64,000 nt of DNA from positions 3,679-67,678 of the forward strand of contig CAYUMP010000016.1 in the NCBI GenBank assembly GCA_964445975.1, written 5' to 3'. Under the pieces are notes generated by a model, which ran no database searches, was not told where the DNA came from, and saw only the letters and a list, made by a program, of their open reading frames with translations. Position numbers and translations under genes: made by a program. This document shows positions 231-13,376 of the stretch, one piece after another; position 1 is the first letter of the stretch; each line of letters begins with the position of its first letter. The DNA is from an uncultured Chthoniobacterales bacterium. GTDB taxonomy: Bacteria; Verrucomicrobiota; Verrucomicrobiia; Chthoniobacterales; Terrimicrobiaceae.

Positions 231-1337
231 TCAGTGAAGGTCAGCCAGGGGAACTGCAACCACGGCCGGAGTGCGTGTGGCCGGACGGACTTCTCCCGAG
301 ATGAGAACGGCCATGTTTTGCCAAATCACAGCAGGGGCAGCCACCATGGGCTCCGGGCCGGGGCTGGAAGGCAAATCGGGATTCGGCTTGCGGTCGCACG
401 GAAGCGGCGGGCCTTCCTTCCAAGTGTTTTGGGCAGGTGAATAAATCAACGTTTCTCGTTCAAAGCCGGGGTGGTCTTTTTGCGCGCCAGCGAAGACGAA
501 GCCATAGCCCCCGGCCACGAGAATGCGGCCATCGGGCAGCAACGGACATGGAGTCGCCGCACCAACACGAGCGAAGGGGAGGTCTTCCAGCTGGGTCCAG
601 GCACGGGTGACGGGGTCGTAGCGATAGGCGTTGTCAAGCGGTACGGGGCGGGCCTTTCCGTCGTCGGAGGGCAAGTAGTGCATGCCGCCAAAGACATAGA
701 AATGGCTGCCATCGCTTGCCGCCGCCATCACGTTACCCAGTTTGCCGGGGAAATCCGCGACCTTGGTCCATGCGGAGGATTGACCCGAGGAGAGCGGCAA
801 AGCCCAACACTCCCTGCCGGGTTGAGTAGAGCCTGCATCCGGCACTCCCCCGATCACATAGAACACATCCTTCACGATCGCGGCCGCACCGTAGACGATC
901 GGATGAGGCAGTGATGGCAGGGTGGTGACTTTCAACACCCCCTCTTGCAGACCGATGCGGTAAACATCCTTCAGCGAGCCGGTACCGTTCATGCCACCGG
1001 CGGAGATCACGTCCGATCCATAAGGCGCGCTGGCGGAGTGGGCAATTTCCTGAGGCAGTTTCTCCTTCAATTCTGTCCAGGGGCCTTCCGGACTCTTCAG
1101 CACAAAAACCTTGTCGCTATAAGCCTTGGTCCCGCCATTCCATATCGGCTTGTCGATGAAGCGGCTACCTCCGCCGGTGAAAAGCACGCCATCGGACACA
1201 CCGGCAAACATTCCACCGAAGCCTACGGGATCTGGCAGGGGCGGCAGGGTTTTCCAGGAAGTGGCGGGCGAGACGGCGGTGGCGGTCATAATGGTAAAAA
1301 GAAAGACGGCAATCGCACGGCAGGCCGGTCCCATCAT
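231..1337 (-). CDS. Kelch-repeat beta-propeller protein, exported (NanM/YjhT mutarotase-like)
   Basis: ORF 231..1394, trimmed to ATG 1337 (MMGPACRAIAVFLFTIMTATA, hydrophobic leader), which forms an ATGA overlap with the MFS stop. Repeated blade motifs: VLFTGGG, VISAGGM, FYVIGG, FYVFGG, ILVAGGY. Confidence 0.7.
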   Translation of the reverse strand: MMGPACRAIAVFLFTIMTATAVSPATSWKTLPPLPDPVGFGGMFAGVSDGVLFTGGGSRFIDKPIWNGGTKAYSDKVFVLKSPEGPWTELKEKLPQEIAHSASAPYGSDVISAGGMNGTGSLKDVYRIGLQEGVLKVTTLPSLPHPIVYGAAAIVKDVFYVIGGVPDAGSTQPGRECWALPLSSGQSSAWTKVADFPGKLGNVMAAASDGSHFYVFGGMHYLPSDDGKARPVPLDNAYRYDPVTRAWTQLEDLPFARVGAATPCPLLPDGRILVAGGYGFVFAGAQKDHPGFERETLIYSPAQNTWKEGPPLPCDRKPNPDLPSSPGPEPMVAAPAVIWQNMAVLISGEVRPATRTPAVVAVPLADLH

Positions 1338-2605
1338 GGTTGAGATGAGCCGGGGAATTTCACCGGTTTGATAAAGATCAATAATACCGCGCATATGATG
1401 AGTCCAACAGCGGACGCCTCAAAGACATAGCGGACATTGACATTGGCATCACGCAAAACTCCACCGAGCCAGATGGTGAGTCCGCCGATGACGCATGAGA
1501 AGAGATTCAAGATGCCAAAGCCCGTGGCCCGATAGCGGGAGTCGCAAACCATGCAGAGAATCGGCATTGTGTTGCCGTCCGTGCAGGCGCGGGCGAAGCC
1601 GAAAACGAGCAGGCCGGCGATGGCGCCAAAGAAGACCTCCGTATTGGCCGTAAAGAAAATCGCCGGAGCGGCCACACACATGCCGAGCACTGCGACGAAC
1701 AGGCGCCCGCGTTCATGAGAGCGGCTCCAGCGGTCGGCCAGGGCTCCGCCCAGCACGAAGCCTGCGAGAGTCGAAATTTGCAGATAGCCAGTGGCAGCCA
1801 ACCCGGCTTGCCCCTGGGACAGATGGAACTGCTGCTGCAAGTAAGTCGGCATCCAGCCAATGATGCCCCACCCGGCAAAACCCATCAGGCCCCAATGAGC
1901 CAGCAACTTCAAAAATGAGGCCTGCCCGAACAAGCTTTTTACGGCGGTGAAAAAGCGGACACTCCCGGCAGACTTTTCCTCAATGGTTTTCCCGGACGAT
2001 GGCGCGTCGCGCAGGAGGAAAATCAAAACACAGGAATAGACAATGCCAATGACGCCAAACAGATGAAAGGCGTAAGCCCAGCCATGCCGCTCAGCCAGCC
2101 AACCGCCCATGCCGCCCAAGCCGGAACCGATGCTGACGCCGCACAAATGAATGCCGGTCGCCAACGAGCGGGTGGAACCGCGATGATAATCCGTGATCAA
2201 AGCGAGCGCGGCCGGCAGGTAGCACGCTTCGCTCAGGCCCATGATGGCCCGGGTGGCCAGCAATTGCTCGAAGGTGACGGCATGGCTCGTCAGCCAGGTC
2301 GTAACGGACCAGAGAAACAAGCTGCCGACAATGATCTTGGACCGGCTGAATCGGTCGGAAAGAAAGCCGGCTACCGGGCTGAGAAGACCGTAGACCCACA
2401 AGAACACTGACGTCAGCAGCCCAAAATCGCCATCGGTCATCGGGATGGCGGCCTTCACCGAATCCCGCATCGTGGTAAGCATGATGCGGTCGAGATAGTT
2501 CAGACAGGCGACCACGCAGAGCAGCGCGACGATAAGCCAGGCCCGCGGGGGAAGACCTGCCACTGTGGACGAGCTTTGCTCGTCTGATGTCGTGGGGAGA
2601 CTCAT
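1334..2605 (-). CDS. MFS transporter (sugar-acid/anion symporter type)
   Basis: 423 aa and polytopic. MFS loop motif GFLSDRFSRSK follows TM2. Sits between the dehydratase-like and Kelch genes on the same strand. Confidence 0.85.
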   Translation of the reverse strand: MSLPTTSDEQSSSTVAGLPPRAWLIVALLCVVACLNYLDRIMLTTMRDSVKAAIPMTDGDFGLLTSVFLWVYGLLSPVAGFLSDRFSRSKIIVGSLFLWSVTTWLTSHAVTFEQLLATRAIMGLSEACYLPAALALITDYHRGSTRSLATGIHLCGVSIGSGLGGMGGWLAERHGWAYAFHLFGVIGIVYSCVLIFLLRDAPSSGKTIEEKSAGSVRFFTAVKSLFGQASFLKLLAHWGLMGFAGWGIIGWMPTYLQQQFHLSQGQAGLAATGYLQISTLAGFVLGGALADRWSRSHERGRLFVAVLGMCVAAPAIFFTANTEVFFGAIAGLLVFGFARACTDGNTMPILCMVCDSRYRATGFGILNLFSCVIGGLTIWLGGVLRDANVNVRYVFEASAVGLIICAVLLIFIKPVKFPGSSQP

Positions 2606-2611
2606 GGCGAA

Positions 2612-3859
2612 CTAGGTGCGAAGGACCTTGCCCTTCACGGAGTTGAATTCGCCCGTGCCCGGCTGGTAGGGATATTTGTTAATGACCTCCTCAGGGAGCT
2701 TCACATTCAGGCCAGGAACATCCGGGAGGTAAACACGGCCGTCCTTCAATATCGGTGGCTCCACCCAAAGATCGGAGAGCAGGGGCGAGAAGAAGTGCGT
2801 GTTTTTCGAACGATCCGAAGGATTGAAAGCGGCCATCTCGACGATCTTCGTCGCCCGTGAAGCCATGGCGGCGTGCAGATTGCCCATGGCGCCGACGCCG
2901 GAGGTCCATGAATGGGTGGCGACGGGGATGCCCTGAAGTTCGCACAAGTGGGCGATCTTTACAAAATTGGTCAGGCCGCCCATGAAGGCCGCATCGAGTT
3001 GCGCAAGGTCGAAGGGTTCCTCCTCCATCCAGTCGCGCCATTCTTCCACGCTGGTCAGACATTCGCCTCCAGCCACGGTCAGGCGTGTGCGGCCACGCAG
3101 GCTGCGGTAAGCGGACTTGTCGGTATAGGGCAACGGCTCCTCGAAAAATTCGATGGGATAGTCGGCCAGCGCTTCCAGGACGTAGGCCGCCGTGGGGAGA
3201 TCCCAGATATGGTCGCGCTCGGTCATATTATCCATATGGCCATCCATCATGAGGCGAAAATCTTTGCCAAAGCGCTGGCAGAGCCACTCGACTTTTGTCA
3301 CCTCGATATCCGCCGCCTCCTTGGCGGTGCGGCCGCGATAAAAAGGCTGACCCTGCTCGTGAATGCCGCCACCGAGTTTCACGGCGGGAAAGCCGACGGA
3401 GAGATACTGCGCGACCTTGGCTTCGAGTTTTTCCTTGGGCCAGTTCGATGCTCCACCGGTGGCATAGCAGTCGAAGGATTCATGGCACTTGCCTCCCAAC
3501 AACTCGTAGACGGGCACACCCAGAGCCTTGCCCTTCAAATCGTAGAGGGCCATCTCCAAACCGCTCAACACGATGGAGCCCAACCCGACCCGGCTCCAGA
3601 ATTTCCCGGCGAGAAACATGCGGGCGTAAAGCGTGTCGATTTCCAGCGGGTCGGCGCCTTCAAGAATCGGCGCGTAAAACTCCACGACCGCTGGGACAAT
3701 CTCCGGAACGAAATAGCCGGCGTAGGTCTCGCCGAGACCCACATGCTCGGTATCCGTTTCCAAAACAATGAAAGCCGCCGAGCGCATCGTCCGGGACCGG
3801 AAGTGTTCATCCTGATGGGGCGCCGAGCACAAAACCGTGCGGACTTTGGTGATTTTCAT
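2612..3859 (-). CDS. enolase-superfamily enzyme (mandelate racemase/muconate lactonizing family, acid-sugar dehydratase-like)
   Basis: 415 aa. N-terminal capping-domain pattern LETDTEHVGLGETY...ALYDLKGKALGVPVYELLGGK. Barrel metal-ligand-like positions MMDGH, FFEEP, AGGE. Confidence 0.85.
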   Translation of the reverse strand: MKITKVRTVLCSAPHQDEHFRSRTMRSAAFIVLETDTEHVGLGETYAGYFVPEIVPAVVEFYAPILEGADPLEIDTLYARMFLAGKFWSRVGLGSIVLSGLEMALYDLKGKALGVPVYELLGGKCHESFDCYATGGASNWPKEKLEAKVAQYLSVGFPAVKLGGGIHEQGQPFYRGRTAKEAADIEVTKVEWLCQRFGKDFRLMMDGHMDNMTERDHIWDLPTAAYVLEALADYPIEFFEEPLPYTDKSAYRSLRGRTRLTVAGGECLTSVEEWRDWMEEEPFDLAQLDAAFMGGLTNFVKIAHLCELQGIPVATHSWTSGVGAMGNLHAAMASRATKIVEMAAFNPSDRSKNTHFFSPLLSDLWVEPPILKDGRVYLPDVPGLNVKLPEEVINKYPYQPGTGEFNSVKGKVLRT

Positions 3860-3908
3860 GAATGATACTGATCTCTAGTGGGAGGGCATGAGCGATGGCA
3901 AGAGAATT

Positions 3909-3930
3909 TGCATTCGCATGCATGCATATA
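3909..3930 (-). promoter_or_regulatory. copy 1 of 22-bp ATGCAT-rich motif (reads TATATGCATGCATGCGAATGCA on the minus strand)
   Basis: Lies in the 103-nt gap upstream of the dehydratase-MFS-Kelch unit, 50 nt before ATG 3859. Used as the reference copy for the other three. Confidence 0.45.
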
Positions 3931-3962
3931 AACGCACGCGGCCTCCCTACAGAGGAAAACCC

Positions 3963-6900
3963 TCACTCGCTAACAGTTTCGAGGAGTTCGGAAACCACTT
4001 CCCCGGTGTAGCGGTCGATAGCGACGTGAAGCCAGTAGCGACGTTCGCCTTCGACCATGAAGTCGTCGATCGACTTTGGGCTTTTGGGGAATCGTCCGGT
4101 CTGGGCGACGAGGTCGATGAGGAAATTCCAGGTTCGGGTCTGGGTGGTGCCGGTGAGGGCACGGATGAGACTTTCCCGTTGCGTTTTGATGGCAAAGGAG
4201 GATTCGCCGCCAGCTCCCTTGCCAAGTTCCGCATCGGTGAGATTGGTCGGGGTGGAAAATTCGGTGACAAAGTCGGAGATGTTTTTCACGGGGCCGACGG
4301 TGCTGAGGTAGTTGCGAATACGATTGGCGGCGGCCAAAGCCTCGCCTTCGGTGAGCACGCTGGTAGGGGTCTTTTCCTCTTTGACGGAATCGATGAGTAG
4401 CGCCTTGAGGACATCGGCACTGGCCGAATTGGGATTCACCCGGCCTTCGATGGTTTCCGTGTCATCGATACTGAAGACATCCAGCAGAGAGGCGTCCGCG
4501 CTGTCGGTACTAGAGAAATTCAAGGAGCGCCAGGGGACGTCGCGATAGACGTAACCGAGATCGGCTACGGAACTGAAAGGACGGTCGAGGACGACAGGGC
4601 GGGAGCTATTCGTGCCAGCGGGGCGAGAACCACTGGGAGGCCAAGCGGTGTGGGTTGAATATTGCGCATGAATAGGCTCCATGGGATTTGGAATGTTATC
4701 ACCGGGGGCGAAGCCGCCGTCGCCCTGGCGATACTCACCATCGGGATCTTGCGCCCTAGTGGCAGCAATAGTGTTCTCCCATAACAAGCCCAGGAAATAA
4801 CTTGAACTACCTGCCGGGCTATATCCGTTACTCGGAGTTCCGTCCGTGGTCGCCACGCCATAGGGGGTGCCTTGACGGCCAAACTTGTCAAATCGCGGAC
4901 GAATACTATAGGGAGCGGTATTATTCGGCGCAAAGGTGCTTTCATAAAACTGAATTAAGCTTCCCGTCGGATTGGTAGTGGCTGTCGCGGGGGTTGGAAT
5001 CGTCTTGGTCGGCCGAAAATTCAGTCCAAAATAGCCAAGGCGATTGGTTCGCGGATCACCATGCGCAAAGCTGGTACTGCCGGCAATTCTGGGTGCGGCG
5101 TACATCGAAGCGTTATTTACCTCCGACATTTTTAAAAACGAAACATTCGTTTCTAAGGTTTTTTGATAAGTTCTTGGCACCCCATCTTTATCAATGACTG
5201 CGAGCTCAACAGAAATGGGACGCACGATATCGAATCGAGCAGAATTCGGACACCACCAGTAGGGAGCCGGATGCCCAGCCGTTTTTTTGTTGTAGTTGAA
5301 ATCCGGCAGGGGTTGGCGATCAAAACGGACGTGGGACGGTTCCGAGAAATAGTTGAAATTGCACCAGGTCTGAGCAGGAAACTGCTGGCCGGCTGAAATC
5401 GTTCTCGTGGTATCTAGGTTGCTTGTCCCTCCAGCGCCCGTGAGGGTTTCGGCTGGCGTCTCTGCGTTATAGGAGTCATACATTGTGACGCTAGTTGCAC
5501 CGCTAATGGCCAGTTTGATCTCGGGATTGTAGTCGCTCGCAGTGGGCAGGTGTTGAAAATTAGGATTCCAGAGTTCAGCGGAAACCCGGAATCCATATTT
5601 GTCGATTTCCCCCGGGGTGTTATTTCCTGTGACTTTATCATTTTTAAAATTTTCGCGCCCGATTGTCATATTATCCGCCTCGACTCCGGCCTTGACGGGC
5701 ACGTTCTCGCCCAGAAAGGAAATCTTATTTACATAAGGCAGGTTTTCCACGCCGTAGAGCGTTCCGCCATTCCACGCAATCGTCGTCGGAATGGGAATGC
5801 GTCCGGCGGCATTGGTATCGGGATCGAGATCGTATTGATCGATGATGTTTGCACCGATTTGCATGATATGAGTGTCTTTGTCCGAATTGTCCGCAACCAT
5901 GGCCGTAGTACCCGCGCTCTGCCCTATCGAGCCGGCCTCTATGGCGGCTTTTAGTATCTCAAAAAAATCAAGTTCTCGGTATTCCGACTCGGCCGCTATC
6001 TGGGCAGCGGTTTTTATGGTGGATGCCTTATAGGTAAACGAACGGGAACCTTGGATGTAGGTCAGCCCGAAGTATTTCGCGACGTCCTGCGCGAGAGCGA
6101 TATCTCCTGGATTTTGTGCTAGGTCGGAAATGAGTTTCAATCGGCTGAGCGGAAAGCGCTTTTCAAAAAGCAGACGGCCTGTGATGGCGTGACGCAGAGT
6201 GACAAACGATGGATTGGTCGACGATTCCACCGCAGTCGGTGGTTGGTAAGTCGGAGCGTTTTTTTCCCGGGAGAAAACGCTGAGGAAATTCAACTTGTCG
6301 TCGAAGCCGCTGCGCTTGGCGAAGCGAATCAGTTCCTGACGAGACAGGAAGCGATTATCGCCAGCCTCTGTCTTGGTGAAACCCTTGTGATCTCCTTTTT
6401 CAAGATACTGTTTGTAGAGCGCAGGAGTACTGGCATTGTGCGCATTGCGGAAAGAAACAACTTGGGCCGCCTCCGTGTCGGAAAGACCGACACCTTGGAG
6501 CTTGACGAGACCGGGTGAGCCTTTCTTGACCACATCAACGGCAGGGAGAGATGCCGGATAGCCCGCCACGTTCATGTCCAGCAGGCCGCTGATGTCATAG
6601 ATGGCAAAAGCGATGCGTCCGAGAACAAACCCCGCCTTAGTCGGATCGGAGGCGTCAGCCAAGGACAGCGACATCACAGGCCCTTTCCGGTCCAAGTAAA
6701 TCCAATCGGGGGTCTTTACGGTGGTCCCGTCAAATTGCCCGAGCGCGGATTTATTCCAGCGTAGTGCGCTAATCGAACGACCATTGCGCGAAGGCGTGGA
6801 AGACGATGCGGCCGAACCTTTGAGAGTGGCACCGGCACCAGTGAAAAGCGTCGTATTATTTTTGCTAACCTTCAGGAGATTGCCCAGCGGGTCGGCTGCG

Positions 6901-7229
6901 ATCTTTTCAGGGACCATATACTTGCGGTCGGTAGGCACATAGATGACAGGGCCTTTTTCCTGCGGGTCTCTGTTGGTGGTTGAGCGCGTTTCATCCGCGA
7001 TTTCCTTGCGCAGTTCCCCGATAACGAGTTCAAGTCCGCCGGCACCGAGTTCTTCCGCCTTCATCGAGTTAGTGAAGGCGGAGGTACTGGCGCGATCATT
7101 CGTGGCCAGTGAGAAGAAAACTACGATCAAAAAGCTGAGAGTCAGAACGGCAAAAAGCACGAGGACCAACGAAAGGCCGGACTCCTTTTTGACCGCGGAA
7201 ATTTCAAACCTTGGTTTCGTCTTTTTCAT
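3963..7229 (-). CDS. giant GspK/PilX-like minor pseudopilin-family protein (recalled as 'Verru_Chthon cassette protein A' type)
   Basis: ORF 3963..7307, trimmed to ATG 7229 (MKKTKPRF...), 8 nt after the upstream gene stop. One N-terminal TM segment, GLSLVLVLFAVLTLSFLIVVFF. The C-terminal 160 aa carry GspK-like signatures: GRVNPNSASADVLKALL (nt 4395-4445) and the ending RYWLHVAIDRYTGEVV. Confidence 0.6.
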   Translation of the reverse strand: MKKTKPRFEISAVKKESGLSLVLVLFAVLTLSFLIVVFFSLATNDRASTSAFTNSMKAEELGAGGLELVIGELRKEIADETRSTTNRDPQEKGPVIYVPTDRKYMVPEKIAADPLGNLLKVSKNNTTLFTGAGATLKGSAASSSTPSRNGRSISALRWNKSALGQFDGTTVKTPDWIYLDRKGPVMSLSLADASDPTKAGFVLGRIAFAIYDISGLLDMNVAGYPASLPAVDVVKKGSPGLVKLQGVGLSDTEAAQVVSFRNAHNASTPALYKQYLEKGDHKGFTKTEAGDNRFLSRQELIRFAKRSGFDDKLNFLSVFSREKNAPTYQPPTAVESSTNPSFVTLRHAITGRLLFEKRFPLSRLKLISDLAQNPGDIALAQDVAKYFGLTYIQGSRSFTYKASTIKTAAQIAAESEYRELDFFEILKAAIEAGSIGQSAGTTAMVADNSDKDTHIMQIGANIIDQYDLDPDTNAAGRIPIPTTIAWNGGTLYGVENLPYVNKISFLGENVPVKAGVEADNMTIGRENFKNDKVTGNNTPGEIDKYGFRVSAELWNPNFQHLPTASDYNPEIKLAISGATSVTMYDSYNAETPAETLTGAGGTSNLDTTRTISAGQQFPAQTWCNFNYFSEPSHVRFDRQPLPDFNYNKKTAGHPAPYWWCPNSARFDIVRPISVELAVIDKDGVPRTYQKTLETNVSFLKMSEVNNASMYAAPRIAGSTSFAHGDPRTNRLGYFGLNFRPTKTIPTPATATTNPTGSLIQFYESTFAPNNTAPYSIRPRFDKFGRQGTPYGVATTDGTPSNGYSPAGSSSYFLGLLWENTIAATRAQDPDGEYRQGDGGFAPGDNIPNPMEPIHAQYSTHTAWPPSGSRPAGTNSSRPVVLDRPFSSVADLGYVYRDVPWRSLNFSSTDSADASLLDVFSIDDTETIEGRVNPNSASADVLKALLIDSVKEEKTPTSVLTEGEALAAANRIRNYLSTVGPVKNISDFVTEFSTPTNLTDAELGKGAGGESSFAIKTQRESLIRALTGTTQTRTWNFLIDLVAQTGRFPKSPKSIDDFMVEGERRYWLHVAIDRYTGEVVSELLETVSE

Positions 7230-7237
7230 GGCGGCGG

Positions 7238-8104
7238 TTAACGCAAGGGAACAACGCGTTCGACGGTCGTAATGCCGTTGCGGAAACGTTGAGGTATGGC
7301 CCCCCAAATGGCAGGTTGGTTTAATTTTTCATCCCACAAGGCGGACAGGGAAACATTCGAATCCTCCGGTGTCTGCAGATAGGAATCGGTCATGAAATTT
7401 TGGCGAAAGGTGCCAAGCAAAGCGGGATTGCCGCGAATGACGGACTCAGTCCTTTCGTCGAGGAAAAGGAGGGTGATCACCGCCGCCTTGGACTGGGCCT
7501 TATCCTGATCGGAATTGTTGTAGCGGAGATAGTATTTCCCGTCATCGGCGAGGAAGCGCAGTTCCATGCGAATCACGCCTTTGAGAATGGGCTCAAATAC
7601 GCCCCCGGCATCGGTGGCGACTCGATAACCCTCGGCCACGGAATCCTTCGCGAATGGCATGGGGTCGGTGAGTGCATTGACGGCGGGATAGGTGCCGATT
7701 GCGTCCCACTGGACATTGATCGCTCCCCGCCAGAGAGCGAAGCCGGCGGCTGCGTCATCCTTGGCCTGGTATGCGACGAGGGAAAGTTGACGGAAATCGC
7801 GGGAATCGCTCCCCATGGGAGTCGTCCCGCCACGCCTGGTAAAAAAAACGAGCGCCGGATTATCAAAACCGTCCTGAAAGGGCGTAATATCCGAACGATA
7901 GAGACCCTGGCTCAAGTCGCGGGCAAGCAGATCCATGGCGGCGCGAGCCTTGGAATGAATCTCAAAGAAGCGCCGGCCCTGTCCCACGACATCCATGGTG
8001 GAGCCGATGATTTGATTGAGCAGCAAGACCAGCACGCAGAGCACCGCGGCGGCCACCAGTACCTCCAGCAGCGAGAAGCCCCGGGATGACCGCGCATGCC
8101 TCAT
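7238..8104 (-). CDS. prepilin-type N-terminal cleavage/methylation domain protein (GspJ-like; 'cassette protein C' type)
   Basis: N-terminus M(M)RHARSSRG/FSLLEVLVAAAVLCVLVLLL is a class III signal. ATG 8104 shares one base with the upstream TGA (TGATG). The track start at 8107 is a GTG. Confidence 0.75.
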   Translation of the reverse strand: MRHARSSRGFSLLEVLVAAAVLCVLVLLLNQIIGSTMDVVGQGRRFFEIHSKARAAMDLLARDLSQGLYRSDITPFQDGFDNPALVFFTRRGGTTPMGSDSRDFRQLSLVAYQAKDDAAAGFALWRGAINVQWDAIGTYPAVNALTDPMPFAKDSVAEGYRVATDAGGVFEPILKGVIRMELRFLADDGKYYLRYNNSDQDKAQSKAAVITLLFLDERTESVIRGNPALLGTFRQNFMTDSYLQTPEDSNVSLSALWDEKLNQPAIWGAIPQRFRNGITTVERVVPLR

Positions 8105-8571
8105 CACTTATACCGAATGTAGGTGGTGGTTTCGTAATTCTCCTCGGCCTTGGGGATCGCCTGATAATTTCCGCTGCTCTGCGGCGGATGCACCAGCGCG
8201 ACAAACACACGGGCTATCCCTTCATTCGAGGGTACGATCTCGTAAAACAGCGAGTAGTAGGCCTGAGAGCCACTCGAAGCCACCCGGCCCGAACGATCCA
8301 ACAAGGCGGTTTGCAGTCCGGCGGGACTGTTGGTCAGAGGCGGCAGCGGATGAGTTGCCGGCATGGTGGCCAGGGGGGCCGCCCGGCGTTCGGCTAAGAG
8401 GGAAGAGGCAACCTGAGCCGCAAAGAGTTCGGTCTTGGCTTGGCGAGCCACCTTGAGGCCGGAGGAGAGCAGGCCGCATAACGCGACGAGAGCAAAGACC
8501 ACCACGCCCAAGGCAATCATGACTTCGATCAGGGAAAAACCCTTTCGAGCCACCGACGATTTTCGGGCCAT
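8104..8571 (-). CDS. prepilin-type N-terminal cleavage/methylation domain protein (GspI-like; 'cassette protein B' type)
   Basis: ORF 8104..8649, trimmed to ATG 8571, giving MARKSSVARKG/FSLIEVMIALGVVVFALVAL. This is a short leader followed by the G/F-S-L-I-E motif. Confidence 0.75.
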   Translation of the reverse strand: MARKSSVARKGFSLIEVMIALGVVVFALVALCGLLSSGLKVARQAKTELFAAQVASSLLAERRAAPLATMPATHPLPPLTNSPAGLQTALLDRSGRVASSGSQAYYSLFYEIVPSNEGIARVFVALVHPPQSSGNYQAIPKAEENYETTTYIRYK

Positions 8572-8636
8572 AAAAACAGGCGAATATACAAATGCGGATG
8601 CCCATTTCCCGCATTTCCTCTTAACTAAGCCCTCAT

Positions 8637-8658
8637 TGCATGTATGCATGCGAATGCA
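8637..8658 (+). promoter_or_regulatory. copy 2 of 22-bp motif (TGCATGTATGCATGCGAATGCA, 19/22)
   Basis: Lies in the gap between the aldo-keto reductase stop (8712) and the pseudopilin B/C/A unit. 8652-8661 is a perfect palindrome, GAATGCATTC. Another GAATGCA sits at 8682-8688. Confidence 0.45.
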
Positions 8659-8711
8659 TTCAATTTATGTATTCACTATGTGAATGCAAGAAAAAGCTGC
8701 AGCCGAATAAA

Positions 8712-9653
8712 TTATTTTGCGTTTTCCGAAGCCTTCTCGGCCTTGCTGGGCCAGGTAGGCGGATCAATGAGCCAGCCGGGGACGGCGGGGTCAAAAGCCT
8801 CGATGCGGGCAAGAATTTCCGCATCGAGAGGAGGCTGGTTGAGCAACGCAAGATTTTGCCGGAGCTGGGTACGGTTTTCCATGCCCATCACCACCGAATC
8901 GATATCGGCGCGGCTGAGCATGGCCCGGGCCAGAAGATGAGGCAGAGGCAAATCATACTCCGTGGCCAGTTGCTGAAAAAACGTCCGGGCAGGAATGACC
9001 CCCTTGAGATGCTCGGGCGTATTTTCATCGCTCATCAGCAGGAGCCCCTGCAAATAACAGCTCCGAGCAAAAACCATGGCTCCCCGCTCCCTGGCCCGCC
9101 GCGTGGTTCCTCCATGCGTAAAGCGGCGATCCAAAACATTGGCCGGAATTTGAATGCCTCCCAGAAACGGGTTTTCCAGAAACGGCTCTGCACGTTCAAC
9201 TGAACCCATCGAGACCCCGCACTTTTCGATCAACCCCGCTTCCTGACATTTCGCCAACGCATCCAGGTAGGCGGGCTGGTCGTCGCGATGCAGCAGCACC
9301 AATGGAAGCGATTCCACGCGCAAACGCTGCAAGGATCTTTCCACACTTTGACGGGTTTGTTCTTCCGCTTCTTGGGTCGACAAACCCGGGTTCATCGGGG
9401 CGACTTTGCTGACGATATAAAAAGAATCCCGGAGACCGATTTCAGCGAGGGCCTTGCCCAAAACCTCCTCGCTTTCACCATAGGCTGCCGCAGTGTCCAG
9501 GCAATTGATGCCGGCGGCGGCCGCCTCCTCTAACATGGCGCAAATCTCGGAAAAGGCGGGAGTGCCCGCTTTGTTGGCGACTCCGTAGGCCAGCCCGAAC
9601 TGGACTGTACCCAGCATCAGAGCCGACGGTTGAATGGAATTGGCAATACTCAT
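8712..9653 (-). CDS. aldo/keto reductase
   Basis: 313 aa. N-terminal pattern LGTVQFGLAYGVANKAG...INCLDTAAAYGESEEVLGKAL is typical of AKR family oxidoreductases. Confidence 0.85.
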   Translation of the reverse strand: MSIANSIQPSALMLGTVQFGLAYGVANKAGTPAFSEICAMLEEAAAAGINCLDTAAAYGESEEVLGKALAEIGLRDSFYIVSKVAPMNPGLSTQEAEEQTRQSVERSLQRLRVESLPLVLLHRDDQPAYLDALAKCQEAGLIEKCGVSMGSVERAEPFLENPFLGGIQIPANVLDRRFTHGGTTRRARERGAMVFARSCYLQGLLLMSDENTPEHLKGVIPARTFFQQLATEYDLPLPHLLARAMLSRADIDSVVMGMENRTQLRQNLALLNQPPLDAEILARIEAFDPAVPGWLIDPPTWPSKAEKASENAK

Positions 9654-9805
9654 GGCGCTACTTTGCCGTATATTCCCCGCCGATGAAAAGATTGGTGCCT
9701 CGAATATCTTTCGAGAGCCCCGAAGTGGACAAAACCTGCTGAATTTTTCCTTCCAGAGAGAAGCGATTTAAGATTTTTTGAGGCATCGTGTTGAGAGATC
9801 ACTGA

Positions 9806-9864
9806 TGCACTACATGCATCTGCATTCACGCAGCAATGCAAAATCTCCTTAAAGTCTTGCATTC
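9806..9864. promoter_or_regulatory. cluster of five TGCA(T) cores, including two TGCATTC heptamers, in a divergent promoter region
   Basis: The 246-nt AKR/GntR divergent gap contains TGCA at 9806, ATGCAT at 9814, TGCATTC at 9821, TGCA at 9837 and TGCATTC at 9858. These share half-sites with the 22-bp motif. Confidence 0.35.
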
Positions 9865-9899
9865 TGCTACATACAGGTAAATGTGTATTTCGTGTTGAA

Positions 9900-10631
9900 A
9901 TGAGAAATCCGAATACAACCAAGGCATATGACTACCTGAGAAAGCGCATTCTCGGAGGAGACCTTCAGCCTGGGGCCTTTCTTTCAGCGCAGAGTATTTC
10001 CAAGGACATTGGTGTGAGCCGCACCCCGGTAAGGGAAGCGCTACGGCAGCTCGAATATGACGAACTGGTGACCATCGTCCCCAAACTGGGAGCAGTGGTG
10101 AAAACACTGAACCGGGATCAATTTCAGGATTTGCTGGGCTATCGCCAGGCCTTGGAGACCCATACGGCCGGAAAGGCCGCGGAACTACGCCGTCCGGAGG
10201 AGGTCGAGCAACTCAAAACGATCCTCGAAGGCATGCGAGAGCAAACCAACATTCTGGTGCAAAATCCGCGGGATGTTGATGCTCTCAGGCTTTTGGGGGA
10301 TTTTGATGTGCGTTTCCATCGTTTGCTTTTCGCGATGGCCCGCAATTCCCTCATCCGTGAAAAATTTGAGCGCGCACACATCCTCCAACGCATGCTGACC
10401 CTTACGCTCATCGAACAACAACTTCCGGAAGATGACGCCTTGAAGGAAAACGTGATGACCGTCTTTGAAGAGCACACGAATATTTACGAAGCCATCCGAG
10501 ACGGAGATGTCAGTAAGGCTCAAAACACCATGGGCAAGCACATGAGCAGCTTTGCGGCAAAAGCTTCCAAGCGCAGCCGGGCGGCCGCGGGTGAGAACTA
10601 TCCGCAAAGTTCGGTGGAAGTACTGATGTAG
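9900..10631 (+). CDS. GntR-family transcriptional regulator (FadR/FCD subfamily)
   Basis: N-terminal winged-HTH pattern: LRKRILGGDLQPGAFLSAQSISKDIGVSRTPVREALRQLEYDELV. The C-terminal region is helical and FCD-like. 243 aa. Confidence 0.85.
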   Translation: MRNPNTTKAYDYLRKRILGGDLQPGAFLSAQSISKDIGVSRTPVREALRQLEYDELVTIVPKLGAVVKTLNRDQFQDLLGYRQALETHTAGKAAELRRPEEVEQLKTILEGMREQTNILVQNPRDVDALRLLGDFDVRFHRLLFAMARNSLIREKFERAHILQRMLTLTLIEQQLPEDDALKENVMTVFEEHTNIYEAIRDGDVSKAQNTMGKHMSSFAAKASKRSRAAAGENYPQSSVEVLM

Positions 10632-10645
10632 CCTTCCTGAGCGGC

Positions 10646-11281
10646 TTAATTCGAGCCGCTCGTAAACCGGACAAACCCGGTCGGACCGTTCACGGCGAAG
10701 GAGTCCCTGACGTCCTTCATATGCCCCTCGATGGCCGATGTATTAAAGGCGATATTGCCCTGAACGCCGCTGCCGATCTTGGCTTCCCCGCTGGGTGAAA
10801 ACTGTACGCTGCGTGAGAGATCCACTTCCTTCGAACCCGTACGGACCTTGAACCTTGCCGTGGCGGCCAGGGAACTCGCCGAAGTTAAGTCAAAGTCACC
10901 CAGGGTCAGAATTTTGGTCACCGGGATAAACTCGGCATTGCTTGGCACATCGAAGGTCCGCGCTGCCCAAAGATCTTCGGGGCCATAACCCTGAGCCAAG
11001 CCGTTGCGCGAGGCCACGACACAAGCATAAAGCGGGCGACCGTTCATGGCGTTTTCGCTGAAAGCCACCCAAACGTATGTGTTTTTGGCGACGGCGTACT
11101 GGCGGGCGCCCTCAAAAAGCGAGGAAACATCCGTGAGGTATTTCGTGCGGCGGGAGGAAGCAGCCATATTCCCCAAAGCGGGAATGGTGGCGGTGGCAAG
11201 AATGCCAATCAATGCAACAACACTTAACAGCTCAATAAGTGAAAATCCTTGGAGGCGATATTTTTCGCCAAGTATATGCAT
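10646..11281 (-). CDS. prepilin-type N-terminal cleavage/methylation domain protein (GspH/FimT-like; 'cassette protein D' type)
   Basis: ORF 10646..11431, trimmed to ATG 11281, giving MHILGEKYRLQG/FSLIELLSVVALIGILATATIPAL. An upstream in-frame Met is possible. Confidence 0.7.
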   Translation of the reverse strand: MHILGEKYRLQGFSLIELLSVVALIGILATATIPALGNMAASSRRTKYLTDVSSLFEGARQYAVAKNTYVWVAFSENAMNGRPLYACVVASRNGLAQGYGPEDLWAARTFDVPSNAEFIPVTKILTLGDFDLTSASSLAATARFKVRTGSKEVDLSRSVQFSPSGEAKIGSGVQGNIAFNTSAIEGHMKDVRDSFAVNGPTGFVRFTSGSN

Positions 11282-11294
11282 GCATGCGGATTCT
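11273..11294 (+). promoter_or_regulatory. copy 3 of 22-bp motif (TATATGCATGCATGCGGATTCT, 19/22)
   Basis: The first 16 nt are the exact reverse complement of 3915-3930. The copy overlies the predicted start codon (11281-11279) of the GspH-like gene. Confidence 0.45.
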
Positions 11295-11524
11295 TTTGCG
11301 TGCAGTTTTGATCGACACAAACGAGCGGACTGATGCGCTGATTTCATGGAAGGGTCTGGGGGACAGTTGAATATATATGGTGATCTCATGTCCTGAGCAA
11401 GTTGTAAAAGAGTTCGCCTTTTACTAAGCAAAATTCATGCCAACGCGTTTTACAGAGAAAAATGACCTTTTTGCCCGCTCAATGATTTTGGAAATTTCCG
11501 GCTTGTTTTTGGAGAGATAGAACG

Positions 11525-11546
11525 TATATGTATGCATGAGTATGCA
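11525..11546 (+). promoter_or_regulatory. copy 4 of 22-bp motif (TATATGTATGCATGAGTATGCA, 19/22)
   Basis: Overlies ATG 11536 of the Gfo/Idh/MocA gene, at the far end of the same divergent gap as copy 3. Confidence 0.45.
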
Positions 11547-12516
11547 GTTAGGCTTGGATCAAGTAGGTCAAAAAAAGGAGGTCACAACACCCCCTTTTCG
11601 GCTGGCAATGCTGGGCATGATTTCCGGCAACGGCCATCCGTATTCCTGGTCCGCGATTGTCAATGGATTTGAGGCTAACGAATTGGATGCATGCCCCTAT
11701 CCCATCATCGTCGATTATCTTTCCCGACAACTCGACGCGGGGATGGAACATGCGGCGGTGACACATATCTGGAGCGACAATCCTGCCGATGCGGCCCAAG
11801 TCGCCCGATTCGCCAAGATTCCCCATGTCGTGGAGGCGCCACAGGATGTGATCGGTGAAGTCGACGCAGTGATCATTGCGGTGGACGATGGCGACGATCA
11901 CGTGGAGCGCGCCCGGCCTTTTGTCGAAGCAGGTCTGCCGGTGCTGGTGGACAAACCGCTCGCCACCAATGTGGAGGACCTGCGGACTTTCGTTTCCTGG
12001 CGCCGCAGTGGAGCCCAGATACTTTCATCCAGCGGCATGCGCTATGCCTCCGAATTGAACGACCTGAAGGGCATCTCTTGGGATTGGATGTCCGTGGTGT
12101 TGTCCAATTCCTGGAAGCGTTATGGCATTCATTTTCTGGAGCCCGTGTACACCCTCACCGGTCCAGGCTACCTCAGCATCCGCTCCTTTGAAGAGGGGCC
12201 CAATCAGTACGTCAGCCTGCGCCACAGCTCTGGCCAGTTGCTGACGCTTTCGTTTCTTCGGGAGGTCAAACTTCCCTTTGGGACCTTCCATGTGAGCGGT
12301 AAAGACGGGCAGAAGGCCTTCCATTTGCACGATACGTACGGGGCGTTCCGCCGACAGCTGCTAGCCTTTGTCGACTACGCCATGACCGGGCACGAGCCGT
12401 ATCCATTTTCCGAAACCATCGAGTTGATGGTGATCATCCTGGCCGGGATTGAAAGCACCCGCCGCAATGGGGCTGAGATCAACCTGAGCGAATTCCAAAA
12501 AAATCTAGCGTTATGA
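11536..12516 (+). CDS. Gfo/Idh/MocA-family oxidoreductase
   Basis: 326 aa. N-terminal Rossmann strand-loop FRLAMLGMISGNGHPYSW. Mid-region AVIIAVDDGDDHVERARPFVEAGLPVLVDKPLA is typical of the family. Confidence 0.7.
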   Translation: MSMQLGLDQVGQKKEVTTPPFRLAMLGMISGNGHPYSWSAIVNGFEANELDACPYPIIVDYLSRQLDAGMEHAAVTHIWSDNPADAAQVARFAKIPHVVEAPQDVIGEVDAVIIAVDDGDDHVERARPFVEAGLPVLVDKPLATNVEDLRTFVSWRRSGAQILSSSGMRYASELNDLKGISWDWMSVVLSNSWKRYGIHFLEPVYTLTGPGYLSIRSFEEGPNQYVSLRHSSGQLLTLSFLREVKLPFGTFHVSGKDGQKAFHLHDTYGAFRRQLLAFVDYAMTGHEPYPFSETIELMVIILAGIESTRRNGAEINLSEFQKNLAL

Positions 12517-13376
12517 AACTGCGAAAAAGCCGAGTCTTGAAAGAAACCCATCAAGGGATGGTAGCCACCTGTGCAAAAATCAACCTGAGCGATCCCCGCG
12601 TAATCGAACTATGCGGTCTCGCCGGCTACTCGACGGTCTGGCTCTGCCTGGAACACGTCCCAAACGACTGGAGCGTGATCGAAAATTGCGTGCGGGCGGC
12701 CAAAGCATACGACATGGACGTGATTGTCCGCGTGTCCCGTGGCTCGTACAGCGACTATATCCGCCCCTTCGAATGCGATGCAACGGGGGTGATGATCCCT
12801 CATGTGGAATCGGCCGAACAGGCGCGAGAAATCGTGGATTTCTGCCGCTTCAATCCTTTGGGACGCCGGGCCCTCGATGGCGGCAATGCAGATGGCGCCT
12901 ACTGCCAGGTGCCGCTGCAGGAGTACCTGCATCACGCCAATACCGAACGGTTTTTAATCCTGCAAATCGAATCCCCGGAGGCTCTGGAGAATGTCGAGGA
13001 AATCGCGGCGGTTCCAGGTTTTGAATACTTGCTCTTTGGCGCAGGCGACTATGCCCATCGCATCGGCAAAGCCGGCCAATACACCTGCCCGGAAGTGGAA
13101 AGCGCCCGCCGCCGCGTAGAAGCCGCCGCCCTGGCCAATGGCAAGCGCTGCGTGGGAGTGGGAATCATGCTAGAGGCTCCTTTGTTGAAGCAGCGCGGAT
13201 ATTCCGTCATCAATCTCGCGTCGGATGTCGTCGGGCTCGGCGGTTACCTCGCCAGCCAGCTTACGTCGCTTGAGCAGGAACCGACACTGCCCCCCGCCGC
13301 CTCGCTGTACTCCAACGGCAATGGTTCCAATGGCAACGGCCACAAGGCCGACGATTCCATGGTGCTGACGAAATAA
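12513..13376 (+). CDS. HpcH/HpaI-family aldolase (2-keto-3-deoxy acid-sugar aldolase-like)
   Basis: ATGA overlap with the upstream gene. Family-like pattern IELCGLAGYSTVWLCLEHVPNDW...VIVRVS...GVMIPHVESAEQAREIV...ILQIESPEALENVEEIAAVPG. Confidence 0.8.
   Translation: MKLRKSRVLKETHQGMVATCAKINLSDPRVIELCGLAGYSTVWLCLEHVPNDWSVIENCVRAAKAYDMDVIVRVSRGSYSDYIRPFECDATGVMIPHVESAEQAREIVDFCRFNPLGRRALDGGNADGAYCQVPLQEYLHHANTERFLILQIESPEALENVEEIAAVPGFEYLLFGAGDYAHRIGKAGQYTCPEVESARRRVEAAALANGKRCVGVGIMLEAPLLKQRGYSVINLASDVVGLGGYLASQLTSLEQEPTLPPAASLYSNGNGSNGNGHKADDSMVLTK

Follow-up and report, generated by a model that had tools for sequence, protein, structure and literature searches.

What is the 22-bp, ATGCAT-rich motif that recurs before the genes around a GntR-family regulator gene (9900-10631) in a 64,000-nucleotide stretch of DNA from an uncultured Chthoniobacterales bacterium, and what reads it? 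The stretch, referred to here as the window, comprises positions 3,679 to 67,678 of contig CAYUMP010000016.1 (assembly GCA_964445975.1). An earlier note, made from its sequence alone, had taken the motif for an operator set of the local GntR protein or else for a shared promoter or 5'-untranslated-region (5'-UTR) element. The motif was found to be rare, to lie at particular places relative to genes, to be conserved in related organisms and to co-occur with the GntR gene. On this basis, the GntR/FCD protein encoded at 9900-10631 is quite probably the regulator for which the motif serves as DNA operator.

The window was searched with the 22-mer at up to 3 mismatches, with 100 dinucleotide shuffles as a control. 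Exactly four matches were obtained, compared with none in the 100 shuffles (chance expectation, 0), and the four copies listed in the earlier note, a reference and three agreeing with it at 19/22 positions, were thus recovered with 0, 3, 3, and 3 mismatches. Site 1 (3907-3930, minus strand, TATATGCATGCATGCGAATGCAaa; 22-mer at 3909-3930, 0 mismatches) scored 33.2 bits with a position weight matrix (PWM) and lies ∼50 nt upstream of the ATG of an acid-sugar dehydratase gene (3859), with a TTGCCA −35-like hexamer 7 nt downstream of its arm. It is kept at the equivalent place in L040, a contig carrying an orthologous locus. Site 2 (8637-8661, plus strand, TGCATGTATGCATGCGAATGCATTC; 22-mer at 8637-8658, 3 mismatches; PWM, 35.0 bits) lies ∼65 nt upstream of the start of a pseudopilin operon (8571, minus strand) and has its counterpart at position 9195 of L040. 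The segment 8652-8661, described earlier as a perfect palindrome, does read GAATGCATTC, and an extra arm, GTGAATGCA, was read from the sequence at 8680-8688 on the plus strand, at a distance of 30 bp, or three helical turns, from the site 2 arm. Site 3 (11273-11296, plus strand; 22-mer at 11273-11294, 3 mismatches; PWM, 32.1 bits) and site 4 (11525-11548, plus strand; 22-mer at 11525-11546, 3 mismatches; PWM, 31.2 bits) are both conserved islands in an alignment of orthologous loci (alignment A1), and nucleotides 11273-11288 are, as had been claimed, the reverse complement of 3915-3930.

When the whole window was scanned with the PWM, nothing was returned beyond these four strong sites (31 to 35 bits), shifted echoes of them, and two sites of 9.2 bits. 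The two weak sites are on the minus strand at 9809-9830, in the gap between the GntR gene and a divergent aldo/keto reductase (AKR) gene, and at 9856-9877, 23 nt upstream of the GntR ATG (CTTGCATTCTGCTACATACAGG on the plus strand). The five TGCA cores previously placed in 9806-9864 were located at 9806, 9815, 9821, 9837, and 9858, with the heptamer TGCATTC at 9821 and 9858. The claim that the motif marks every local unit therefore stood for the four units with strong sites, whereas the marking of the GntR/AKR gap is weak. The site at 9856-9877 is a candidate autoregulatory site. A similar sequence occupies the equivalent position in L040 (PWM, 15.1 bits), in L041 (6.8 bits), and, judged by eye, in L045, and the sequence CTTGCATTC-N4-ACATRCA recurs upstream of GntR at the same place in these three contigs.

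The host genome is a 4.77-Mb draft of 59% GC in 50 contigs, labeled C1, C2, and so on. At up to 5 mismatches, the 22-mer marked three loci (the window locus on C16, C1:85-88 kb, and C31:45-49 kb), with two further stray 5-mismatch matches on other contigs. A pattern and a PWM were then built from the aligned sites, and the reversed PWM served as a control. The PWM scan of the genome gave 14 sites at 25 to 38 bits, while the next best scored ≤21 bits and the control peaked at 13.6 bits; the sites at C1:82312, C1:85587, C2:89333, and C4:209939 were added in this way. The ∼14 strong sites of the genome thus fall at five places, namely the window locus, two further loci, each on another contig, and two sites that stand singly. 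The exact pattern was counted 10 times in this genome, compared with 0 to 1 times per genome in the 101 other family genomes scanned. The motif is therefore not a generic element spread at similar density regardless of gene context, which the earlier note had named as the outcome that would refute it. The strong sites are all intergenic or at gene 5' ends, so that the placement first noted in the window holds genome-wide, and the genes they mark are functionally related. One PWM match, at C7:19496 (17.6 bits), fell inside an adenylate kinase gene and was set aside as chance.

On C1, the motif precedes a DUF1559 pseudopilin-like gene, behind which comes a BNR_2 gene; two copies occupy the gap separating a PEP-CTERM/PATR gene from a GDSL esterase gene; and a further BNR_2 (sialidase-like) gene has the motif on its start. 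Of the C31 sites, one is flanked by a SASA esterase gene and a second GntR/FCD gene, another, a perfect 28-bp palindrome (TGAATTCTTATGCATGCATAAGAATTCA), by a 2-hydroxyacid dehydrogenase gene and a second MR_MLE dehydratase gene, and a third precedes the gene for a beta-propeller protein. The C2 site precedes the gene for a secreted 252-residue protein and then that for a 566-residue protein with Kelch-like repeats, as judged from the sequence. The marked genes elsewhere in the genome accordingly have glycan-degrading, surface, or sugar-acid functions, as in the window. An orphan copy (C4:209939-209960; 27 bits) lies in an ∼800-bp stretch without a convincing downstream gene, the sole candidate being a 107-codon open reading frame at 210031.

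The aligned sites gave the consensus yATGYATGCAT-(r n)-GAATKCA(t), of ∼21 bp. Its core is the palindromic 10-bp sequence ATGCATGCAT, made of two overlapping ATGCAT hexamers, and a third, ATKCAT-like hexamer follows exactly 10 bp, or one helical turn, from the second. A mirror-image left arm, TGAATTC, is weak in the sites of this genome, and the same consensus, without this arm, was obtained independently from 16 sites of other genomes. The element is therefore ∼21 bp long and asymmetric, with a symmetric core; the full 28-bp palindrome was tried as a general model and rejected, since its left arm was not kept in the independent set.

Many orthologs of the regulator were retrieved by a homologous-protein search in metagenome assemblies, followed by examination of the encoding contigs; a search for related loci with the GntR protein in genome contigs gave no match. 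In the ortholog contigs L040, L041, L042, and L043, the GntR proteins are 87, 84, 81, and 67% identical, respectively, and all four loci are syntenic, with pseudopilin, GFO-HpcH, or dehydratase-MFS-Kelch units adjoining the divergent AKR/GntR pair. The order of the dehydratase-MFS-Kelch operon is identical in L040, and in L041, L042, L043, and L046 GntR is transcribed divergently from the AKR gene, which is accompanied by an SDR gene in some of them. The motif was present at homologous intergenic positions in L040 to L043 at 20 to 36 bits. In the ∼250-bp spacer between the pseudopilin and GFO genes (alignment A1), the two motif copies were, by eye, the sole conserved islands, and the motif was likewise the conserved island upstream of the dehydratase (alignment A2).

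More distant relatives showed the same association. In G118, an NCBI assembly with a 51% identical ortholog, 8 pattern matches were found compared with 0 control matches, and 7 of the 8 lie within 16 kb beside the GntR ortholog. There, the motifs separate GFO, Kelch/NanM, HpcH aldolase, GDSL, three BNR_2, and two PEP-CTERM genes, a gene for a 1,014-residue protein with a pseudopilin-like N terminus, and an SDR-AKR pair. The families clustered in G118 are those marked at scattered loci in the genome studied here. In G022 (62% identical ortholog), the sole match to a relaxed pattern in the whole genome is beside GntR, upstream of a BNR_2 gene and with a PEP-CTERM gene on the other side. Orthologs of ≥49% identity occurred in only two of 40 relatives, 24 of them in the family. 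In all, the motif was present at 6/6 loci with syntenic or near GntR orthologs, and no regulator other than GntR is shared by every motif-bearing locus. At orthologous positions, the motif has been retained although the intergenic DNA around it has diverged (A1, A2, L040 to L043, G118, and G022), as is typical of operators. Retention of the motif beside syntenic orthologs down to 51% identity thus supports the earlier proposal of an operator for the local GntR protein, and the combination of rarity, co-occurrence with GntR, and a conserved set of putative target genes is, at the level of sequence, the standard signature of a regulator with its operator.

The orientation of the motif relative to the genes is mixed. 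It is codirectional with the gene at site 1, site 4, C1:82312, C2:89333, and C31:49038 but opposed to the gene at site 2 and C1:88215, where there is no codirectional gene, and in the PATR/GDSL gap two sites face each other. A scan of window positions 3000-13000 with Rfam covariance models gave 0 matches at an E value of ≤1. Because of the mixed orientation and the lack of an Rfam match, a protein-binding DNA site fits better than a directional promoter or 5'-UTR element, which makes the second reading offered in the earlier note the less likely one. A simple sigma-70 scan of the intergenic gaps found no consensus promoter. Promoter-like hexamers were read by eye, and the following placements are to be taken accordingly. 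Four sites, including site 1, C31:47737, and C31:49038, appear to be 7 to 8 nt upstream of TTGCCA/TTGACC and 50 to 60 nt from the ATG. Site 2 possibly sits in the spacer of a minus-strand TTGAAT-17-TGCAAT promoter. Five of the G118 sites start 2 nt beyond a TTGAC(A/C) hexamer, so that the motif would cover the spacer and the −10 region. In L057 (G118 C37:457000-476991), the hexamer was seen exactly 2 nt upstream of the sites at 3824, 6152, 9378, and 15146, and on both sides at 3824, an arrangement that suggests divergent promoters with operator-filled spacers. A sigma-54 reading, also by eye, was rejected since no GG/GC pair occurs at −24/−12 spacing.

Several sites coincide with start codons. 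The earlier note had placed two copies on predicted starts. For the pseudopilin gene, this was borne out: ATG 11281 (minus strand) is inside site 3, the motif register is identical in the gene calls of L040 and L042, and the pseudopilin leader MHILGEKYRLQG|FSLIEL leaves no alternative start. For the oxidoreductase gene, site 4 contains the ATGs at both 11536 and 11542, and the one shared by all orthologs is not 11536, as had been proposed, but 11542, which belongs to an ATG-CAR codon pair in the motif arm (GAATGCA type) common to 4/4 orthologs; 11536 is present in 3/4. The protein begins with a poorly conserved stretch of 19 to 21 residues before the conserved RLAMLGM...GNGHP, and within this stretch (window 11536-11610; L041, L042, and L043) the length differences are whole codons (3n indels) and the frame stays open. 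The open frame from the shared ATG-CAR pair and the whole-codon indels argue that translation of the oxidoreductase begins inside the putative operator, and a TATATG −10-like hexamer 5 nt before the first ATG suggests that its mRNA is leaderless or nearly so. Sites also overlap or abut the starts of the PATR, GDSL, and C2 genes, of a BNR_2 gene, and, in G118, of a PEP-CTERM gene. Since most sites overlap or abut a likely core promoter or start codon, several marked genes probably have very short leaders or none.

A number of observations weigh against assigning the motif to this regulator. The sites before its own gene are weak (9.2 bits at both 9809 and 9856). In the two nonsyntenic homologs L044 and L045 (62 and 56% identity), no PWM site of ≥7 bits was found within 10 kb outside the GntR coding sequence, and a 54% identical GntR paralog on C40 has no strong site nearby. 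FadR-subfamily operators usually take the form of an inverted repeat with a GT-N(x)-AC core. That core was not present in the count matrices of the 14 own and 16 ortholog sites, in which symmetry is confined to the 10-bp core and, for the independent set, conservation does not extend to the left arm. Among the three C31 sites lies a second, distant GntR/FCD gene (24% identity; L002 7638-8432), and the positions of the sites relative to the −35-like hexamers vary, which leaves the sign of regulation uncertain. The helix-turn-helix was compared as well and did not separate motif-bearing from motif-less homologs, since this region is nearly identical in all of them. Upstream of the 54% identical paralog (C40:11361-11392; L037), the sequence GTATTCCTAAGAATAC forms a palindrome of the canonical GT..AC type, possibly the operator of that paralog. 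No relevant publication turned up when the literature was searched for ATGCATGCAT or for a verrucomicrobial GntR operator.

Some of these points would suit a different transcription factor, either the second GntR/FCD protein on C31 or an unlinked one, with the 9900-10631 gene merely among the regulated genes. The three strong sites around the second GntR gene include the only perfect 28-bp palindrome, the consensus is unlike that of canonical FadR-type operators, and the sites upstream of the local GntR are weak. This explanation is nevertheless considered unlikely. The second GntR protein is just 24% identical to the first and its gene is absent from the other motif-bearing contigs; neither L040 to L043 nor the G118 cluster has a second regulator, while an ortholog of the first is always there. 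Good sites are found in the divergent promoter region of that ortholog in L042 (32 bits), L043 (23 bits), and G118 (19 bits), and a given orthologous position may have either the G or the T variant of the arm, so that two separate classes of site do not exist. Still less probable is a core promoter or leaderless-start element, that is, a −10/initiator module read by a particular sigma factor. The 5' TATATG does resemble a −10 box placed 5 to 6 nt before an ATG at site 4, start codons are inside or a few nucleotides from the motif at ∼7 genes, and the intergenic regions have no consensus sigma-70 promoter; however, at site 2 and C1:88215 the motif points in the direction opposite to that of the one gene that requires a promoter, at the four sites 50 to 60 nt from the ATG it is upstream of a −35-like hexamer, and in G118 it is downstream of the TTGAC(A/C) hexamers. 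A class of ∼14 sites always beside one GntR gene is also less economically explained by a promoter element than by an operator.

Action in RNA, whether as a 5'-UTR or translation-initiation element bound by a protein or small RNA or as a hairpin, was judged very unlikely. The start codons inside the motif would accord with it, as would the palindromic core, which reads alike in either transcript, and a terminator-like hairpin at 11281-11304 (TGCATGC...GCGTGCA, then a T run), which is formed by the motif and the adjoining conserved TTTGCGTGCAG. Against this, Rfam gave no match, most sites are not hairpin-forming palindromes, some are upstream of −35-like boxes, and the hairpin partner TTTGCGTGCAG is retained in L042 but poorly or not at all in L040 and L041. 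Alternatively, this partner may represent one more TGCA unit, in phase at 10 bp. There is hardly any likelihood that the motif is a short dispersed repeat, similar to repetitive extragenic palindromes or miniature inverted-repeat transposable elements, or a chance cluster of restriction-type palindromes without a regulatory role. It does contain the restriction-type palindromes ATGCAT, GCATGC, and GAATTC, and by our own calculation ATGCAT is underrepresented in the genome (476 occurrences versus ∼730 expected from base composition), a deficit that may hint at site avoidance, for example through restriction-modification. The motif nevertheless exists in only ∼14 context-specific copies without flanking repeat structure, is strictly placed before related genes, and is conserved across species in otherwise diverged intergenic DNA, and 0 matches are expected by chance.

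With the motif taken as the operator of the GntR/FCD protein, we infer that the regulator would bind before each transcription unit of a dispersed regulon. In the window, these units would be the dehydratase-MFS-NanM operon, the pseudopilin operon, the single pseudopilin gene, and the GFO-aldolase operon, with the regulator's own gene and the AKR gene as weakly marked members. Elsewhere, they would include the BNR sialidase-like, PEP-CTERM/PATR, GDSL and SASA esterase, DUF1559, and Kelch/NanM genes and the second dehydratase with the 2-hydroxyacid dehydrogenase. The regulator would most likely be a repressor, released when a sugar-acid-type ligand binds to the FCD domain; repression is favored because most sites overlap or abut the likely core promoter or start codon, where a bound protein would cover the start point of transcription or translation. 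In a group of uncultured Verrucomicrobia, the motif most likely unites sugar-acid breakdown enzymes with pseudopilin-like, sialidase-like, and PEP-CTERM surface proteins in a single regulon. The earlier suggestion that the pseudopilin cassette and sugar-acid catabolism share a regulon would thus hold and would extend to the BNR, PEP-CTERM, esterase, and Kelch/NanM genes.

The gene assignments in the window were confirmed by Pfam. The 243-residue protein encoded at 9900-10631 (plus strand) is a GntR-family regulator of the FadR subfamily, with an N-terminal GntR winged helix-turn-helix (PF00392; E value, 1.4e-15; residues 7 to 67) and a C-terminal, all-helical FCD effector domain that binds the ligand (PF07729; E value, 1.2e-18; residues 78 to 216). 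The AKR gene (8712-9653, minus strand) is divergent from it. The operon under site 1 (231-3859, minus strand) encodes a NanM-like/Kelch mutarotase (231-1394), an MFS transporter of the galactonate-transporter type (1334-2605), and an MR_MLE acid-sugar dehydratase (2612-3859). The operon under site 2 (3963-8571, minus strand) comprises the gene for a 1,089-residue protein without a Pfam match (3963-7232) and two N_methyl pseudopilin-like genes (7238-8107 and 8104-8571). The single N_methyl pseudopilin-like gene, whose start is inside site 3, is at 10646-11281 on the minus strand, and the operon under site 4 (11536-13376, plus strand) encodes a GFO/IDH/MocA oxidoreductase (11536-12516) and an HpcH/HpaI-type aldolase (12513-13376).

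The 1,089-residue protein and a 1,014-residue protein of L046 (1833-4865), both encoded next to pseudopilin genes, share weak similarity in the C-terminal part only. This part resembles a GspK-type helix-hairpin-helix (GRVNPNSASADVLKALL versus GMFNVNSTSVEAWKAVL), and the remainder has no Pfam match. An SDR gene lies between AKR and GntR in L042, L043, and G118 and is absent in this genome and in L041; the 246-bp gap at 9654-9899 (open reading frame at 9650-9922, minus strand, 90 residues) might hold a remnant of it.

Minor-pseudopilin-like cassettes are hugely expanded in the Planctomycetes-Verrucomicrobia-Chlamydiae (PVC) superphylum, and to our knowledge regulatory sites are almost unknown in Verrucomicrobia. 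The present analysis offers a concrete putative regulator-operator pair for this phylum, with a noncanonical GntR site that is open to testing, and would give orphan PVC pseudopilin-like and PEP-CTERM genes a physiological context in glycan and sugar-acid use. It also suggests that several marked genes are perhaps transcribed with little or no leader. A broader model can be put forward only tentatively, and we consider it possible but doubtful: minor-pseudopilin-like cassettes might be substrate-specific envelope modules, and a single GntR protein that senses a ligand, acting through an operator on leaderless start codons, might induce them along with BNR sialidase-like enzymes, PEP-CTERM proteins, and a sugar-acid pathway. 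The locus might then be a PVC counterpart of a polysaccharide utilization locus in which pseudopilin fibers serve for secretion or capture in place of SusC/D.

Among known systems, the enzyme set (dehydratase, MFS transporter, HpcH aldolase, GFO oxidoreductase, AKR, and NanM-like mutarotase) resembles nonphosphorylative sugar-acid routes such as E. coli rhmDTA, although none of the NCBIfam equivalogs for the window enzymes and regulator came near its cutoff. With E. coli rhmRDTA (yfaXWVU), the window shares an MR_MLE-type dehydratase, an MFS transporter, and an HpcH-family 2-keto-3-deoxy-acid aldolase. The regulator of the E. coli L-rhamnonate operon is of the IclR type, whereas the regulator here is a GntR protein and the genes are split over several units, with an oxidoreductase, an AKR, and a NanM-like mutarotase in addition; the scores were 118 against a cutoff of 393 for rhamnonate dehydratase and 69 against 441 for KDR aldolase. 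The BNR, SASA, GDSL, and NanM content gives a sialic- or ulosonic-acid flavor and nothing beyond that. Features in common with nan regulons are the BNR_2 sialidase-like proteins, the SASA/GDSL esterases, the NanM-like mutarotase, and a DHDPS/NanA-like lyase nearby on C31; however, no nanA, nanK, or nanE equivalogs were identified here, and a route through a dehydratase and an HpcH aldolase differs from the Nan pathway. The likeness to the polysaccharide utilization loci of Bacteroidota is a functional analogy only, in that one substrate-responsive regulator would couple surface or export proteins, glycan-degrading enzymes, and catabolism. Here, there is no SusC/SusD pair, pseudopilin-like (N_methyl and DUF1559) and PEP-CTERM proteins make up the envelope parts, and the scattered units occupy four contigs or more.

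The closest parallels are the FadR-subfamily regulators DgoR, UxuR/ExuR, LldR, PdhR, and E. coli NanR, which have the same architecture of GntR winged helix-turn-helix and FCD domain. The regulators of sugar and organic acids in this subfamily share with the present one a gene position next to and divergent from catabolic genes, multiple operators before units, a probable autoregulatory site, and the expected logic of a repressor released by an acid. The operator of E. coli NanR consists of GGTATA repeats and differs from the motif, and the NCBIfam NanR equivalog scored 51 bits against a cutoff of 260. The operator proposed here, ATGYATGCAT-nn-GAATKCA, departs from the subfamily in being asymmetric and without a GT-N-AC dyad, and the regulon adds pseudopilin-like and PEP-CTERM surface proteins. 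Judged from sequence, the system would therefore be a new regulator-operator pair with a regulon of a familiar kind, made less ordinary by its noncanonical GntR site, its apparently operator-embedded start codons, and the predicted coregulation of pseudopilin-like and PEP-CTERM proteins with sugar-acid catabolism.

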